Below are positions 7,517 to 27,675 of a stretch of DNA of 64,000 nt, one piece after another. This DNA is from Somniosus microcephalus (taxonomy: Eukaryota): positions 35,650,001 through 35,714,000 of the forward strand of contig JBMRGM010000038.1 of the NCBI GenBank assembly GCA_052327205.1. Direction: 5' to 3'. The translations under genes and the position numbers were made by a program. The notes beneath the pieces were generated by a model. It saw only the letters and a list, made by a program, of their open reading frames with translations, had not been told where the DNA came from and ran no database searches. Every line of letters begins with the position of its first letter. Position 1 is the stretch's first letter.

Positions 7517-8578
7517 GCGCTTGAGGCGGCGGGGTAGACACAGCCTCGATGAGCGCTCGTCAAGGTTGAAGATCAGCTACAAGCTGTTGAAGAACTGCAT
7601 GCAAATGGGAGAATTCTGAAGGTCTCTGGCCGGATGGTATGCCGAGGACCTTTCTCGCTCCCGCCTGGCTCGGTGGCTTTCCAGAGGGTTTCTTCTCCTT
7701 CGGCCTGGGTCGTCGATGATCTCCCGACCCCAGTACCCGGGCCACCCTTGTCATCTTCCCGTCGTCACCGAGCCTTGTCTGGCTGAACACCGACCACGTT
7801 GTCTTTTCACCGAAATTGTCCGTCCGAAGCGTCTTTAAAAAGACGAAGCGTCTTCATCGATTCCGAAACTACCGAGGTAGAAGAGGCGCCGATCTTGGAT
7901 CGGTGTAACCGTCACCGTCCGTCCTTCGTTCGTCCGTTCGTTCCGTCGATGACTCCGATCGTTCCCCGATTCACTCCGTAACTTTTGATGGACTTTCAAT
8001 CCATAGTTATACTCTTTTGGGACAGTCTTATCTCCCGCCAAATCATAGTCCTGTCTTTGTATTAATTTTGGCGGGCAGAAATCTCTGCAGGGGCGCTTTG
8101 TCTTGTAACGGGAGCCGGTGATAACTTAACTGGCCTTCCTGGCCGATAATGTCTTTTAATGTTTTTTACATTGTCATCGCGACTCGGTTCGCATATTGAC
8201 CGGTCCGGAGATTTTCCTTGATGGCTGTTAAACGGTTTCTCCTTTGTACAATAAATGGGTATGAGTGTTTTTGCATTGTCCGCCCATATCTTGATGGGCC
8301 CCATCCTGTACTTAGAATCCATTGAATATGTATGCTGTTTCCCTGAGTTTCGGTTCCCAGATACTGGCTTTCGCGGGCTTACTGTCTTCAATCCACAAGC
8401 CTGTCTGGCTTGCAGTAACAGAAATCAAACGGTCCAGAAAACTGATCACGAGGCCCGGCGGCCATTTTGTATGCCCTTTAATCAAAGGTTTTTCTGTGCA
8501 AGCTTACTTTGGTCAATAAACTGTCTTATTTTATCCTGTTTTCTTGCGTGATTATTGCTGAAAATTTCGAATCTTACA
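7005..8578 (-). repeat. 3' LTR of ERV copy 1 (1574 bp)
   Basis: Direct repeat of 17809-19369; termini TGTAAG...CCCCTACA on the minus strand; (CT)n at ~7478-7514; YY1-like AAAATGGCCGCC; AATAAAA near the U5 end. Confidence 0.95.
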
Positions 8579-19369: not shown

Positions 19370-20620
19370 CAAGCAAACCCTGCGCAACAACTTGTGATTA
19401 ATAAAGTGGTGAAATTAGCAAATCTGTAATGGTTATTGCTTGCATTTGGTCATTGATCAAGGCTGGGGATTTGCATTCTGAATACAGGAAGTTTTCCATA
19501 TTTATTTACTTCCATTAATGATTCTTGACCCAGTGGCATGCCTACTGAGTGTATTTAATCTTTTCACCAGATATCAGGCTACTGGGGTATGTGCCCCATT
19601 TCACTAGTTTATTAACAGCAACTTGGAAGTGTTTGCCTGGAGCGAGTTATCTTGGCCTGCTGTTTGTCCCTTGTTAAGGAGGTTTGTGGGGCTCTTGTGG
19701 AGTGAGGTTAGTGGGACTGATTATTGAGCCCCATGAAATTGCAACGTTCTGGAAATTTTAATGCTGGGATTAGTTTATTACTAGAAGTGGAGGTTCTTTA
19801 GTCCTCTATAACTGACTGGGATAATAAGTCTACATGGGGTAGATATCCATATTCTAAAAATGATAGCGGCACTAGCGAGGGTGCAAAAAACATTTACTAG
19901 GATGATTCCAGAACTGAGATTATTCTTATTAGGAAAGATTGACCTGTTTGGGATGCCTTCTTTAGGAAAGAGAAGGCTGAGGGTGTTTAAAATTATGACT
20001 GGGTTCGATGGGTTAGATATCGAGATGTTTCCACTTGGGGGCAAGACCAGAACTAGGGGCCTGTAACTACAAGGTAGTAACTAACTAATGACTCCAATGG
20101 TGAATTCAGGAGAAACTTCTTTACCCAGAGAGTGGTGAGAATGTGGATCTCGCTATCACGGAGTGGTTGAGGCGAATGGTGTAGCTGCATTTAAGGGGGA
20201 GCTCTAAGCATGAGGGAGGAAGGATATGCTGTTTGGGTGAGATGAAGGGTGGGAGGAGGCTCGTGTGGAGCATGGACTAGTTGGACTGAATAGCCTGTTT
20301 CTGTGCTGTCGATGGCTTGTTAACCTGCAGGATTAGTCACCTGAGGAACTGCATCTCTGAAGGCCCCTTCAATGGCTTTCGGTGTTGGCCGTGGCTCAGT
20401 GGACAGCGCTCTAGCCTGAGTCGGAAGGTCGTAGGTTCAAATCCCACTATAGAAACCTTGAGTACAAAAGCCAGGCTGACACTCCCAGTGCTGCACTGTC
20501 GGAGGTGCCATCTTTCGGATGAGAAGTTAAACCGAGGCCACTTCTGGCCCCTCGGGTGGATGTAAAAGATCCTGTGGCACTTTTGGAAGAAGAGCAGGGG
20601 AGTTCTTCCCTCTGACCAAT
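19370..20620 (+). repeat. Orphan 3' end of another ZP3 unit (last codons, polyA signal, downstream flank); paralogous to 5757-7004
   Basis: Starts CAAGCAAACCCTGCGCAACAACTTGTGATTAATAAA and aligns with 5757-7004 with scattered substitutions and indels. Confidence 0.9.
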
Positions 20621-20750
20621 TGTTATCCATCAGCCAACATCATAAGATGATCTGGCCATTATCACATTGCTGTTTGTAGGCTCTTGATGGGCTGCCATGT
20701 TTCTGACAATAGTGACTACATTTCAAAAGTAATTCATTGGTTATGAAATG
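20385..20750 (+). mobile_element. SacSINE1/DeuSINE-like SINE (homologues 37381-37750, 50535-50900)
   Basis: A/B boxes, Deu-like core, CATTGCTGTTTGT..CAGTGACTAC tail. Confidence 0.8.
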
Positions 20751-22856
20751 CATTTTTTAATTTGTTCATGGAGTGTGGGTGTCACTGGCAAGGCCTGCAT
20801 TTATTGCCCATCCCTAGTTAGCCTTGAGAATGTGGTGGTGAGCTGCCTTCTAGTCCAGTTGGTCAGTGTGCTGTTGGAGAGTTCCAGGATTTTGACCCAG
20901 TGACGATGAAGGATCGACGATATACTTGCAAGTCGGGATGGTGTGTGACTTGGAGGTGGTGGTGTTCCCATATGCCTGCTGCCCTTGTCCTTCTAGGTGG
21001 TAGAGGTCGCGGGTTTGGGAGGTGCTGCCGAAGAAGCCTTGGCGAGATGCTGCAGTGCGCCAGTGCTGGAGGGAGTGAATGTTTAAGGTGTTGGTGTGAC
21101 ATCCTGAATCTGGGTATGGCGCTGTATAAATAAGATTGTTCTTTCTAAACATCTGACGTGAGTTTGGGACCTACAATAAAATATAATTATCCCTAACCAA
21201 CATACTAGGTCCCCAATAGGGATTCAGTTGCCGTACTGGATCTCCAACAGCAGGTGGGGATAGAATCCATATCAACTTAACGAGCACAGTTTTGTATCTC
21301 TTGTGGCTGACCCTGGTCAGTGAATGCTGGCTGAAATCTGCAGTAGAACTGTTGTCAATACTTAACCACTTACATTTATGTAGCCCCTTCAACGTACTGA
21401 AATGTCCCAAGGTGCTTCACAGAAGCCCTATTGAATAAAATTTGACACCAAGCCACATACGGAGATATTAGGGCAGATGACCAAAAGCTTGTGCAAGAGG
21501 TAGGTTTTAAGGAGGAGGGAGTGCTGGAGAGGTTTAGGGAGGGAATTCCAGAGTTTGGGGCCCAGGCAGCTGAAGGCAAGGCTGCCAATGGTGGAGCGAT
21601 TACATAGAAACATAGAAGATAGGAGTAGGCCGCTTGAGCCTGCTCTGCCATTCAATGCGATCATGGCTGATCATCCAAATTCAGTACCCGATCCCTGCTA
21701 TCTCCCCATAACCCCTTGATCCCTTTAGCCTTAAGAAATGTATCCAACTCCTTCTTGAATATATCTAATGAATTGGCCTCTGCTGCCTTCTGTGGTAGAG
21801 AACTCCACAGGTTCACCACGCTGTGGGTGAAGAAATTCCTCCTTCAGCGACTGGTGCACAAGGTCACCCAGGTCTCGTTGCACTTCCCCTTCTCCCAATC
21901 TATTGCCATTCAGATAATCTGCCTTCCTGGTTTTGCCACCAAGTGGATAACCTCACATTTATCCACGTTATATTGCTTCTGCCCAATCACCCAACCTGTA
22001 AATCATCCTGTAGTTTCTCGGCATCCTCCTCACAGCACACACGCCCACCCAGCTTTGTGTCGTCTGCAAATTTAGAGATATTGCATCAATTCCCTTGTCT
22101 AGATCATTAATATATATATTGTGAATAGCTGGGGTCCAAGGACCGATCCCTGCGGTACCCCACTAGTCACTGCCTTCCACTCAGAAAAAGACCCGTTTAT
22201 TCCAACTCTTTGCTTTCTATCTGCCAACCAGTTCTCTATCCAAGTCAGTACCTTGCCCCCAATCCCATGTGCCCTAACTTTACATACAAATCTCTTATGT
22301 GGGACCTTAATCGAAAGCCTTCTGAAAGTCCAAATACACCACATCCACTGTGTTAAGTATGTGTATTGTATTGAACAATTAACACAAAGACTTAAACGTA
22401 TAACTCAAACAAGTCTTTACTGGTTGGAGGTAGGGACTATACTGAATACAAGATTACTGCACAGTGCTTATATACCGATGTGTTCACCCCCGGTATTACG
22501 TCTACAGCAGCCTGAGAAAGTAGTACATCTCTTAAGGTGGAACAGGCTTAAGCTCTCTTAAGGTGGAACAGGTTACATACACAACACTCCTCCCTTCTTA
22601 GCTTTATAGTCATCCCCCCATTTAACATAACGTAATAACATATATACATATATAACTTCATGTTTAACGTAACATATCACAGATTCAGTCTCTGCGGAAA
22701 ACAGTTCACAGATTCAATCTCTGTGGTGTAGTCGGTTCACGTTACTCATTCAATAGTCCTTTCATGGATTTAACAGCTTGAACTTCCGAACTGATTTGGC
22801 TCCGTTCGGAGGGACCACGTGTGTGATCTGGTAGAGGTGATAATGGTTCAGATGGG

Positions 22857-25172
22857 TCATCTTCTGTTTTTACTTTTCCTTTTCTGCTTCTTGGAGACTC
22901 TCTGGGCTCCATTGTCAGCTGCCACAGCTGCCAGCTGCATGCGCAGTTCCTCCTTCTCTTCCTCCTGTTTCCGTCGTAGAGCCAGCTTCTCCCGATGTTC
23001 CGTAGACTTTTGGTGCTCCTCCATGATTTCTGCACTTTGGGAGTCGAAGTTACAAGCTGGGCAGGACAGGGCATCGTAATATTCGGTGTCGTCCACCAGG
23101 TCATGGTAATATTCGGTGTCGTCCTGAACTAGACCAGTGAGAGGGTCGTCTATTTCCTCCATACCCAGCTGGACGTTAGCCAGCTCTTGTTCCAAATCCA
23201 GACATCTTTCCTGAAGAGACTTCTTCATGTGTACCTCTGCATCCAGCTTTTTCTGGGCTTTCAGCAAATCGTTTACTAGTGACCTCATTTGTGATTTTAA
23301 TACTTCAACTTCCTTTGGAGATTGATTGATCGGACTATGCAATCCCTCTACCCGAGCGGCTGTTTCAGCGGTCTGTTGTTCTACATTGACGTGAGTCAGC
23401 GTACTTTTGGCATCCAATGGCTGCTCTGTTGCAGTCGTTTCAGTCTGTGTCGTCACATCAGCCATCTCAATGACTTTTGAGAGCTCCGAACCCTTTTCCT
23501 TTGAAGATCGCAGCTCGTGTTCAAGTTTTTCCCATTTCAGAGTCTTGTCCCTCAGCATATGAAGGAGTTGGCTGACCGTTAACTCTTCTGACACCAGATT
23601 ATGGCACGCACCTTCAGAACCTGAATCAGCTTTGATTCATTCGGCCTCCTCGCGCAGATGGTTGGTGTGCTCCTGCTCCATTTTCTCCATCAGTTGCTTC
23701 TGTTGCCTTTCCAGATTCTCCCACTCTGTAACAAAGAACTTTTTTATTTCATTCATCTCTTGCTCAAAACGGCGAATCATTTGTTCTAATTGCTGTTGTA
23801 GTTTGAAATGGAGTTGAGTTCGAGCCCAGTGTCCCTCAAAAATGTGCATATCAGTAGACTTGACAGACTCAGAATTCTCTGTTAAACTATGTTGTTGTTG
23901 CTCAGTGGAATTCTGTGCTGAAACTTTGTCTTTTGCACATGGGTTGGTCTTACCATCATCAGTTCTAGAGTCTGGGCTGATTATCTGCACCGAGTTCTCA
24001 CTCTTTATGGCTTTTAGTGAATGCCAGTCCATATTTATGTTTCTAAACCACTCCCGGCCTAGTAGTGGTGGACCTCCCTCCGGTAGCACATATAAGTCCA
24101 TTATTTGACTTCCTTCGCCCTTGTTGGCCACTGCAACCTTTATTGTCCCGATGGGGTACACTCTCTGCCCCGTGTAGGTTGTCAATATAATCTCCGTATC
24201 CTGTAGGGGAATATGTTGGAATAACCTTCTGTAATCTTTCTTATTCATGACCGACAATGCCGATCCAGTGTCCAATTCCATTTTTACTTGGACTCCTTCT
24301 ATCTGAAGAGTAACCCAAATTGTCTGGAGGTCTGCACCCTTACCAACGTTGAGTACCCTTAAGCTAGCCAGTTCAATACTGCTTAAGCCAGCCAGTTCAT
24401 TACTGCTAGCGTCTGAATCGGACTCCTGTTCGGCCACCTTGTGTACCTTTGCGTATTTCCCTTGCGGTGACTTCTTGTTGCTGGTCTTCTTCCCTGACCT
24501 GCATACTCTAGCTATGTGTCCAAGCTTACCACATGTTCTGCATTCTTGGTTTTTAAACCAACACTGGTTCTGATCATGCGTTGTCTTTCCACAACGATAA
24601 CATTTAACAGAACTCACACCCAATTTGTGTGCACTGAGCTCCGGTGACCGTAGCTGCATTACTGCCGTGCCTCTCGCTGCGGCTTCGTGTGCTGCTGCCA
24701 TAGTGACCGCCTTCTCAAGCGTCAGCTCATTCTCCTCGAGCAGTCGCTTTTGTGTATCCTGTTTAAATAAACCACACACAAATTTGTCTCGTAGTGCATC
24801 TGTCAGTCCCATTCCAAACTGGCACTATTTCGCTAATTTACGCAATTCCAGCAAATATTCAGCATTGCTTTCATGCTGTAGCTGCCTTCTGTCGTAAAAT
24901 TTAAATCGTTCCGCTAGCATCAGCGGCGTGGGGTTTAGATGATCTTTCAGGACAGTAACAATCTCATCGAACGTCTTACCCGCCGGTTCATCTGGTGATA
25001 ACAGGTGTTTCAATTGCCCGTATGTCTTCGCACCCATTAAATTTAATAATGTTAGAGCTTTATCTTGGTCACGAATTTTATTGGCCTTACAATAATTTTT
25101 TACTCTTTCAACATATATGGCCCAATCTTCGAGGTCACTATCAAAGGTGCTAATATTCCCGTGTTTAGGCAT
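22857..25172 (-). pseudogene. Gag-protease fused in frame to STK10/SLK-, optineurin- and DNAJC21-like segments (771 codons, two in-frame stops)
   Basis: ORFs 24825-25172, 23637-24812 and 22857-23594 share one frame (TAG 24825-27, TGA 23637-39). Mag-type Gag ([24 protein letters not shown]), two CCHC knuckles, ELDTGS..LLGREW protease, then coiled coils and a C-x2-C-x12-H-x5-H finger. Confidence 0.8.
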
Positions 25173-25309
25173 TGTAGATTTGCAATTTCTCAGATTTTAT
25201 TTTCTTTACTTGTTATCAAAGATGGCGGCTTCCCGCTCTTGCCGTCGTCCTCCGCCCACAAAATGGCGGTTTTCCCGCGCTTGGCGGTCTTCATCCGTCC
25301 CCCGACGCC

Positions 25310-25660
25310 GTCTCCCTTCAGCCCCCGAGTGCGGCCCTTATCTTCGCCGCGATCGCCCGAGTGCGGCCCTTATCAGCGGATGCAATCGATGGCCCGGCTG
25401 CGCCTCGCACTTGAAAGCGGCCCGGCCCTTATCAGTGCTTGCGATCGATGGCCCGGCTGCGCCTCGCACTCCAAAGCCCTTATCTCCCGATCGCGATCAA
25501 TGGCCCGCGCTGTGCACCGCGGCTCTCGCGCCTTCAATTTCTGCAGCCGCTGCCCTTTCAGCACGAGTGCGGCCCTTATCGGTGGTTGCGATCGATGGCC
25601 CGGCTGCGCCCCTCACTTCAAAGCGGCCCGGCCCTTATCTGCCTATCGCTATCGCCCTGT
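25310..25660. repeat. GC-rich ~59-bp imperfect tandem repeats in the Gypsy 5' leader
   Basis: Recurrent GGCCCTTATC...GCGATCGATGGCCCGGCTGCGCC units. Confidence 0.8.
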
Positions 25661-27244
25661 ACCTGTCTTCCCCAGCCCTATCTTCTACTCCGGTTCACAA
25701 GCTGATGGAGGCTTCAGGGTCCTAATGCCTGTTGCTTCCATTGGGGTGGTGAGAGGTGAGGTTTGAAACCTCTCTTCAACCGCCGTGGAATAACTGCCGC
25801 AGGGTAAGAACCTGACTCATCGCCAGTGTTAAGTATGTGTATTGTATTGAACAATTAACACAAAGACTTAAACGTATAACTCAAACAGGTCTTTACTGGT
25901 TGGAGGTAGGGACTATACTGAATACAAGATTACTGCACAGTGCTTATATACCGATGCGTTCACCGCCGGTATTACGTCTACAGCAGCCTGAGAAAGTAGT
26001 ACATCTCTTAAGGTGGAACAGGCTTAAGCTCTCTTAAGGTGGAACAGGTTACATACACAACACACTGGTTCTCCCTTATCTATTTTACTAGTGACATCCT
26101 CAAAAAATTCCAGTAGATTAGTCGAGCACGATTTACCTTTTGTAAATCCATGTTGACTTTGTCCGATCCTGTCTCTGTTTTCCAAGTGCTCTGCTATTAC
26201 ATCTTTTATAATGGACTCTAGCACTTTCCCCACTACCGATGTCAGGCTCACCGAGACCTGTAATTCCCCGTTTTCTCTCTACCACCTTTTTTGAATAGTG
26301 GGGTAACATTAGCTACCCTTCAATCCATGGGTACTGTTCCAGAGTCCATCGAATGTTGGAAGATGATCAGCAATGCATCTACTATTTCTAGGGCCACTTC
26401 CTTAATTACGTTAGGATGTAGATTATCAGGCCCTGGGGATTTATCGGCCTTCAATCCCATCAATTTCCCTAACACCATTTCCCTACAAATACTGATTTCT
26501 TTCAGTTCCTCCCTTTCATCGGACACTATGTTCCCCGACATTTCTGGGAGGTTATTTGTGTCCCCCTTTGTGAAGACAGAACCAAAATATGTATTTAATT
26601 GGTCTGCTATTTCTTTGTTCCCCATTATAAATTCCCCAGTTGGGGATGCTCAAGAGGCCAAAATTGAAGGAGCGCAGAGCTTGCGGAGGGTTGTGGGGCT
26701 GGAGGAGGTTGGAGGGATTTCAAAACAACGATGAGAATTTTAAAAATCAAGGCGTTGCTTAACCGGGAATCAATGTAGTTCAGCGATGGGTGAATGGGAC
26801 TTGGTGTGAGTTAGGATACGGGCAGCTGAGTTTTGGACGGCCTCAAGTAAATGGCGGGTAGTGCGTGGAAGGTCAGCATTGGAATAGTCGAGACTACAGG
26901 CGAATAGAGATGTGGCAGTCAGTCTCACCTGGGTTTAGTGAGTGTCTACACAAAGCCTCATACACAACATACAAAAAGTTGATGTGCATTCACACTGAAG
27001 TCTTCCAATAAATATGTATAATCACAGAAGTGCTTGTTTGAGTAAACCAGTTAACATTTTATACACAGCCAGCACACCTCGCCTCACCCCCTAAACAGCT
27101 GCCATCAAAGCCCAGTTGCTGTATTATTTTGTGGGTCTGTGCTCGGGTTAGCAGCCCTCCAGGATTGTCCCAGAGTCTCCAGGAATTAAAAGATTCATCT
27201 CTGGGAGCCTGGCACGTCCTGAGTTCATGATAGGTGCGGTATTC

Positions 27245-27675
27245 CCAGAAGGTTGTGGGTTCGAGTCCCACTCCAGTGACGAGAGCACATTAATGCAGGC
27301 TGACACTCTAGTGCCACTGCTGAGGGAGCGCCGCACTGTCGGAGGTGTCATCTTTCGGATGAGACGTTAAACCGAGGGCCCGTCTGCCCCCTCAGGTGGA
27401 TGTAAAAGATCCCATGGCCACTATTTCGTAGAAGAGCAGGGAGTTATCCCCTGGTGTCCTAGCCAATATTTATCCCTCAATCAACATCACTAAAAACAGA
27501 TTATCTGGTCATTATCACATTGCTGTTTGTGGGAGCATGCTGTGTGCAAATTGGCTGCCGTGTTTCCTACATTACAACAGTGACTGCGCTCCAAAAAGTA
27601 CCTCATTGGCTGTAAAGCGTTTGGGATGTCCTGAGGCTGTGAAAGGCGCGATATAAATGCAAGTCTTTCTTTCTT
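27245..27675 (+). mobile_element. SacSINE1/DeuSINE-like SINE (related copy 40325-40750)
   Basis: B box GGTTCGAGTCC, Deu-like core, tail GTGAAAGGCGCGATATAAATGCAAGTCTTT. Confidence 0.8.

Follow-up and report, generated by a model that had tools for sequence, protein, structure and literature searches.

A stretch of 64,000 nucleotides (nt) from Somniosus microcephalus (contig JBMRGM010000038.1 of assembly GCA_052327205.1, positions 35,650,001 to 35,714,000; hereafter, the window) carries on its minus strand, at 22351-26062, a Gypsy long terminal repeat (LTR) retrotransposon that lacks pol and has a single 771-codon open reading frame (ORF; 25172-22857), in which Gag and protease (PR) are followed by segments of the host genes STK10, OPTN, and DNAJC21. 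We consider it probable that this pol-less lineage was founded by the capture of a circular STK10 RNA and that the cargo has been kept mainly as an in-frame spacer. Such an element would make its own Gag-protease and borrow reverse transcriptase (RT), RNase H (RH), and integrase (IN) from abundant pol-bearing relatives. The first-pass annotation, made from the sequence alone, had described an in-frame chimera of three host genes, captured serially by template switching and maintained by selection on the fusion protein.

Probable capture of an STK10 circle, and the later cargo

Searches with the host proteins uncovered sister families of the window element. In one of these, family A, a single frame reads Gag-PR, STK10 amino acids (aa) 385-704, STK10 aa 290-388, and an integrase tail, and is open to 848 codons in 9 of the 16 top-scoring loci. 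The cargo is 98.4-100% identical at the DNA level to host STK10 exons, which follow one another in the order mid-9, 10, 11, 12, 8, and start of 9 (numbered on the assumption that a single coding exon precedes the fetched ones). The join of exon 12 to exon 8 falls exactly on the host GT donor and AG acceptor, and it is in frame because exons 8-12, which are stop-free, add up to 1,245 nt and agree in phase. Family A therefore has both structural marks of a retrocopied circular RNA (circRNA), a reversed junction at splice sites and the capture of circle exons only. The back-splice junction is present in 1,138 genomic copies, counted, as were all junctions in the genome, by pattern matching with up to 2 mismatches, for which controls gave 0; the candidate totals of a first look (23,843, 42,280, and 84,201) were set aside as they are not copy numbers. 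In the window family, the 12-to-8 junction has been lost and the permuted order retained, with the STK10 cargo of the window element lying in four pieces in circularly permuted order.

The pol-bearing parent is represented by L120, a randomly chosen locus whose identity to family A, cargo excluded, is ~96% and which encodes PR, RT, RH, and IN in Gypsy order, with Atlas matches named Gypsy. The RT-start junction of this parent occurs 12,185 times in the genome. In family A, the cargo takes the place of the parental pol. The sites at its two ends have 12 and 6 nt in common with a single position of host STK10, and since both switch points lie there, the insert amounts to one turn of the circle plus the shared motif; no word longer than the 12-mer is found in both the parental pol and the STK10 circle. 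At later cargo junctions, 9, 7, 8, 4, 4, 4, and 3 nt are shared, and the proposal of template switching is thus upheld, with 3-12 nt in common at each of the junctions measured (the DNAJC21 and Ig junctions lie outside that set). The STK10-OPTN join of the window element itself has a 9-nt overlap in the host-exon alignment and no anchor in the junction comparison.

These features would be accounted for if RT, in the course of making the minus strand, switched from the integrase end of the parent RNA to a back-spliced STK10 circle packaged with it, copied one full turn (exons 8-12, 1,245 nt), and then resumed on the parent where the RT region begins, thereby replacing pol. Loss of the template to RNase H may have forced the exit after one turn. 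The resulting structure is plain in the genomic copies, and it argues strongly for a circle as the template of the STK10 capture. As separate observations on this locus, the exon 10 donor of host STK10 (L080:683) is GC rather than GT, and degraded pol-bearing Gypsy relatives (65-70% identical in nt) lie within STK10 introns at L081 and L086, one of them in the intron directly 5' of exon 8. There is also a separate, intronless retrocopy of the STK10 C-terminus at L067 (G000:C3:354658271-354658948), which is 97% identical and open. In a random sample of 150,000 bases (L113-L127), this Gypsy clade accounts for 7,932 (5.3%).

The donor identities first proposed were confirmed by matches to shark proteins, sharks being the source of the best protein hits, for DNAJC21 at the protein level. 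The STK10 insert of the window ORF comprises two pieces that are 56% and 74% identical to the shark protein, the OPTN insert (aa 526-674) matches a shark optineurin at 69% identity, and both donors were confirmed against this genome's own OPTN and STK10 genes on C17 and C8, with inserts 76-95% identical to host STK10 and OPTN exons. The window ORF crosses one host intron of STK10 and three of OPTN, and the STK10 8/9 intron is crossed as well, in the piece 3' of the stop codon. An explanation of the inserts as generic coiled coils was rejected on the basis of these protein matches and the host exon alignment. The finger of the window ORF (aa 695-736) is 55% identical to DNAJC21 (pairwise E 1e-9); a database search with the tail of the window element returned no match, DNAJC21 included, and the less diverged insert of the sister locus L049 matches DNAJC21 with an E of 3e-16. 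At G000:C1:2603001-2675274, host DNAJC21 exons were found for aa 1-147, and those beyond, including the finger exon, were not found in the next 50 kb, which contains assembly gaps. The claim that the inserts are intronless therefore holds for STK10 and OPTN, while for DNAJC21 the capture is confirmed at the protein level only. At two A-runs (L088:7781-7793 and 8346-8366), host OPTN exons are one base out of step with both the element and the shark protein, probably through assembly errors.

Cargo has been both added and exchanged among the sister families, whose STK10-to-integrase junction occurs 2,393 times in the genome. Family B combines a 417-nt STK10 deletion with OPTN, and L049 and L092-L103 add DNAJC21. 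L095 carries the STK10 circle, with its back-splice junction, and DNAJC21 without OPTN, which shows that captures occurred in separate branches. L128-L131 (G000:C1, at 108.97, 296.81, 249.31, and 215.75 Mb) carry a fourth cargo in place of OPTN and DNAJC21, tandem immunoglobulin (Ig) domains inside STK10 exon 8, which is in frame at three of the four loci and has titin/obscurin-like matches in the PDB. The Gag-PR of the window family groups with a different pol-bearing lineage, L122 (FastTree support 0.997 in a single tree), and its synonymous divergence (dS) from family A is 0.94, far above the ~0.14-0.18 between cargo and host, which together suggest that the cassette moved to another LTR-Gag-PR backbone by recombination. 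The notion of serial capture is accordingly right as to several captures and wrong as to a single lineage, given the circular first donor, the absence of OPTN from L095, and the L122-type backbone. While the capture architectures and the tree are directly observed, the order of events would be as follows: pieces of OPTN, DNAJC21, and Ig-repeat mRNA were inserted by later microhomology-guided switches, partly in separate branches, and afterwards trimmed and recombined, and the triple cassette was transferred to another backbone to give rise to the window family. Outside this set, no Gag fusion was present among the best 150 of 526 representatives (names were looked up for 7, which were either ordinary kinases of the STK10/SLK type or had no name), and none was named among 105 protein matches.

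Frame maintenance, cargo selection, and competing readings

The window family is abundant and largely open, as the first-pass annotation had anticipated. Its protease-to-STK10 junction occurs 1,814 times in the 6.4-Gb genome, and a DNA search with the window element gave 39 full-length matches of 97-100% identity. Thirty of these were retrieved; the frame stays open as far as codon 771 in 25 and is broken in 4, with 1 copy unscorable. Because these had been picked for likeness to the window element, 10 further copies were taken by position from the junction-pattern list, and 7 of the 10 keep the frame open through the usual tail, including 4 that carry in-frame deletions. The family is young, as paired LTRs differ at just 30 of 5,428 sites (23 of 24 copies scored; the rate is uncalibrated).

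Selection on Gag-protease and on the keeping of the frame is clear. The ratio of nonsynonymous to synonymous rates (omega) for Gag-PR is ~0.2-0.3 overall and ~0.2 between lineages, with protease alone near 1 between families A and B at few sites. The deletions measured (21, 69, 258, and 417 nt) are each a multiple of 3, and in 5 of 6 indel-bearing copies of the window family all indels are multiples of 3. Selection on the amino acids of the cargo is weak or absent. Cargo omega spans 0.5-1.9 overall, and variants shared among window-family copies comprise 22 nonsynonymous and 22 synonymous changes (22N:22S) in Gag-PR and 28N:6S in the cargo. The finger has an omega of at least 1, and positive selection upon it was rejected, as neither of the two in-register comparisons (L049 and L100) is significant; the remaining 10 of 12 rows were offset by one codon and were excluded. 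The proposed selection on the fusion protein thus stands for Gag-PR and the continuity of the frame, and for cargo residues only weakly.

These patterns are consistent with cargo that serves as an in-frame, soluble spacer. Translation would proceed to a stop near the 3' end and finish with a basic tail, as pol does in the single-ORF parent, and this through-translation may protect the RNA and let it recruit its own Gag in cis, such that the host function of the cargo would matter little. The kinase, J, and ubiquitin-binding domains are absent from the captured cargo.

Several observations weigh against the founding circle or the spacer. No inverted repeats were found between STK10 introns 7 and 12, and circSTK10, strongly indicated as it is, is deduced from genomic DNA. 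An empty, cargo-free allele of the pol deletion at the family A junction gave 0 matches (at most 1 mismatch); such an allele is predicted by a deletion-first route to family A and might also be expected if the cargo is a spacer, although it could have been transient. For STK10 and OPTN combined, changes relative to the host are 46.5N:27.5S, with an omega of 0.48-0.65 (p of 0.002 at kappa 1 and 0.068 at kappa 3), an estimate that is biased downward by synonymous changes on the host branch and excludes the OPTN codons at the A-run offsets; omega is 0.36-0.50 for the STK10 part alone, and the out-of-frame STK10 tail has 7N:2S. The four zinc ligands of the finger are kept in 35 of 35 independent copies (the set after removing five duplicates), amid ~19 residue changes. 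Translation of the fusion protein is predicted from the open frame, and RNA run X7 covers the ORF without strand bias. By comparison, run X6 covers the whole ORF at ~80-865x on one strand and 5-46x on the other, ~10x higher on the strand expected for sense RNA; for both runs, the species link to the window's organism is not established, and intronic read-through could add to the coverage. Five runs (three organism labels, two studies) contain 62-72% of the family's sequence words.

The main rival to the spacer accepts the same captures and proposes that the cargo polypeptide serves the element, with a module of coiled coil, finger, and basic tail, either cut free by the protease or left attached to Gag, that would dock on host partners, target particles, or act as a decoy for autophagy. 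The mild constraint on the STK10 coiled coil, the invariant zinc ligands, and the lack of an empty allele would fit such a role, as would the basic C-terminus, which arises in three different ways, from the integrase tail in A, from a shifted poly-Arg tail in B, and from the native frame of DNAJC21 in C. However, the lineage-wide ratio of 46.5N:27.5S resembles that of cargo singletons (48N:24S), shared cargo variants are largely nonsynonymous, and omega for the finger is 1 or more, if not significantly so. Cargos are also freely swapped between sister families, part of the DNAJC21 segment in L049 is read outside its native frame, and a 258-nt in-frame deletion in the window family has removed the OPTN region with the DDSFVEI motif, which we take to be an LC3-interacting region (LIR). 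A working cargo is therefore unlikely in our judgment. A broader form, in which a circRNA-founded vertebrate lineage has been building an accessory protein by capturing and shuffling modules of at least four host genes under selection on the element, with cargo that actively helps to target particles or to evade host defence, is conceivable, if doubtful.

Camouflage at the RNA level is a much weaker candidate. Silencing would be costly to the host because small RNAs against the cargo would also strike STK10, OPTN, and DNAJC21, an idea described for plant elements (in the available text of PMC13317346) and compatible with the high transcription of the family. It leaves the strict keeping of the frame unexplained, the window-family cargo has drifted to 76-95% host identity, and cargo-free pol-bearing relatives outnumber the cargo families, which makes camouflage very improbable. 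Similarly remote is a linear source of the permuted STK10, through a tandem exon duplication since lost or trans-splicing, which would suit the missing inverted repeats and the purely genomic record of circSTK10, but exons 8-12 are present in one copy each in 80 kb of host sequence, circle exons are the only ones captured, and the insert is one unit plus the shared motif in length.

The window element and its neighborhood

Re-examination of the sequence bore out the anatomy first described for the window element. It shows the marks of Ty3/Gypsy elements, with LTRs of 236 nt each that begin and end in TG...CA and differ by 3 mismatches (5' LTR, 25827-26062; 3' LTR, 22351-22586), a 5-bp target-site duplication (TSD; CACTG at 22346-22350 and 26063-26067), a primer-binding site adjoining the 5' LTR (25817-25826), and a polypurine tract (22587-22600). 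The primer-binding site presumably resembles the 3' end of tRNA-Ser; no tRNA gene was found within the 64-kb window. GC-rich repeated units (repeat family D2) lie in the 5' leader at 25355-25639. TSDs are perfect in 28 of the 30 fetched copies.

Within the ORF, the Gag capsid region (24618-25172) is followed by two CCHC knuckles (24501-24602) and the aspartic protease (24042-24314), whose catalytic Asp is kept in 35 of 35 copies. In a Pfam search, the protease (aa 287-377) and one CCHC were visible yet under curated cut-offs, a PKK domain at aa 458-581 passed (E 1.6e-11), and no RT, RH, or IN domain was found; the only remnant of pol is the integrase C-terminus, which matches the end of the pol-bearing parent and is present in two copies (22677-22697 and 22706-22726). 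We assume that the element belongs to the Mag clade, the feature checked being the two CCHC arrays of its nucleocapsid. Such arrays characterize Mag and likewise Micropia/Mdg3 in the portion of PMC2577118 available.

The STK10 cargo begins at ~24004 rather than at 23840, as previously placed. Exon 9 is present as two pieces separated by a 69-nt in-frame deletion (23827-24004), and a 417-nt in-frame deletion precedes the exon 11/12 coiled coil (23626-23837), which crosses a host intron. The optineurin segment, spanning three host introns, follows at 23152-23634, and the DNAJC21-derived segment (22860-23150) begins with a 30-nt tandem duplication and includes the C2H2 finger (23060-22992), an acidic run, and the basic tail. 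The end of STK10 exon 8 and start of exon 9, the tail of the captured circle, lie at 22745-22865, out of frame and mostly 3' of the stop codon in the window family.

The window copy has in-frame stops at codons 116, in the capsid region, and 512, in the coiled coil. As suspected, they are private to this insertion: both occur in 1 of the 35 independent copies and again in L002, which duplicates the entire locus of the window element (4 mismatches in 6,712 nt). Duplicates that include flanks form two segmental pairs, L001/L002 and L007/L008, and L017, L021, L026, and L028 form a tandem array with ~5.7-kb spacing (C6:2.76-2.78 Mb). The window element interrupts a long interspersed nuclear element (LINE) RT frame (22000-22345 and 26068-26400), presumably CR1/L2-like, and a dispersed repeat pair of 84-88% identity, which we take to be similar to short interspersed nuclear elements (SINEs), lies at 20487-20689 and 27327-27542.

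Significance and relation to known systems

The sister families provide a natural, nucleotide-level record of the passage of circular RNA into genomic DNA, in which an LTR-element RT would enter by microhomology, make one turn, and exit, a route left open in the available text of the circRNA-pseudogene paper (PMC4897178). They also present captured host genes as the foundation of a thriving vertebrate retrotransposon radiation (~4,000 copies), as opposed to rare, dead retrocopies, and the preserved intermediates allow one to ask whether selection targets frame, RNA, or protein. A practical implication is that expression estimates and circRNA calls in this species will be confounded by thousands of STK10, OPTN, and DNAJC21 fragments of 87-99% identity, 1,138 of which bear the back-splice junction. 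A literature search returned no description of this shark family, with subscription journals mostly outside its coverage.

LTR-mediated retrocopies are known in zebrafish, chicken, mouse, and human (Tan et al. 2016, PMC5131818, here and below from the part of the text available). Like the shark elements, they comprise partial, intronless mRNA between LTRs with microsimilarity at the switches, and include multi-gene chimeras, sense transcription, and non-autonomous re-transposition. The first-pass statement that no vertebrate LTR family of this build had been described therefore fails as to kind, a four-gene mouse chimera being among those reported, and holds as to scale: those cases are few loci per species, most of the older ones (14 of 21) being disrupted, whereas the shark family has thousands of copies, a single frame fused to a Gag-PR that is under purifying selection, a circular donor, and a stepwise series. 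Mouse circRFWD2 pseudogenes share the non-colinear junction at splice sites, the restriction to circle exons, and the association with LTRs; they are multi-copy (33 of high confidence), and their mechanism was termed mysterious (Dong et al. 2016, PMC4897178, in the accessible part). Beyond these, the shark family makes visible the parent, both switch points, and the one-turn length, and adds 1,138 junction copies and an open Gag fusion.

In defective, helper-dependent transducing retroviruses, such as E26 (gag-myb-ets), pol is replaced by in-frame host sequence. The shark family differs from these in having no env, in germ-line amplification, and in the apparent loss of the host activity of the cargo. 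Maize Bs1 is a low-copy element. It is likewise an LTR element with a chimeric ORF from three host genes, reported as transcribed and translated, but it is a plant element, and no circular donor is mentioned in the available portion of its description (PMC13317346). LTR retrocopies, circRNA pseudogenes, and Bs1 were thus known, and what is new here is the scale and the visible, stepwise mechanism.

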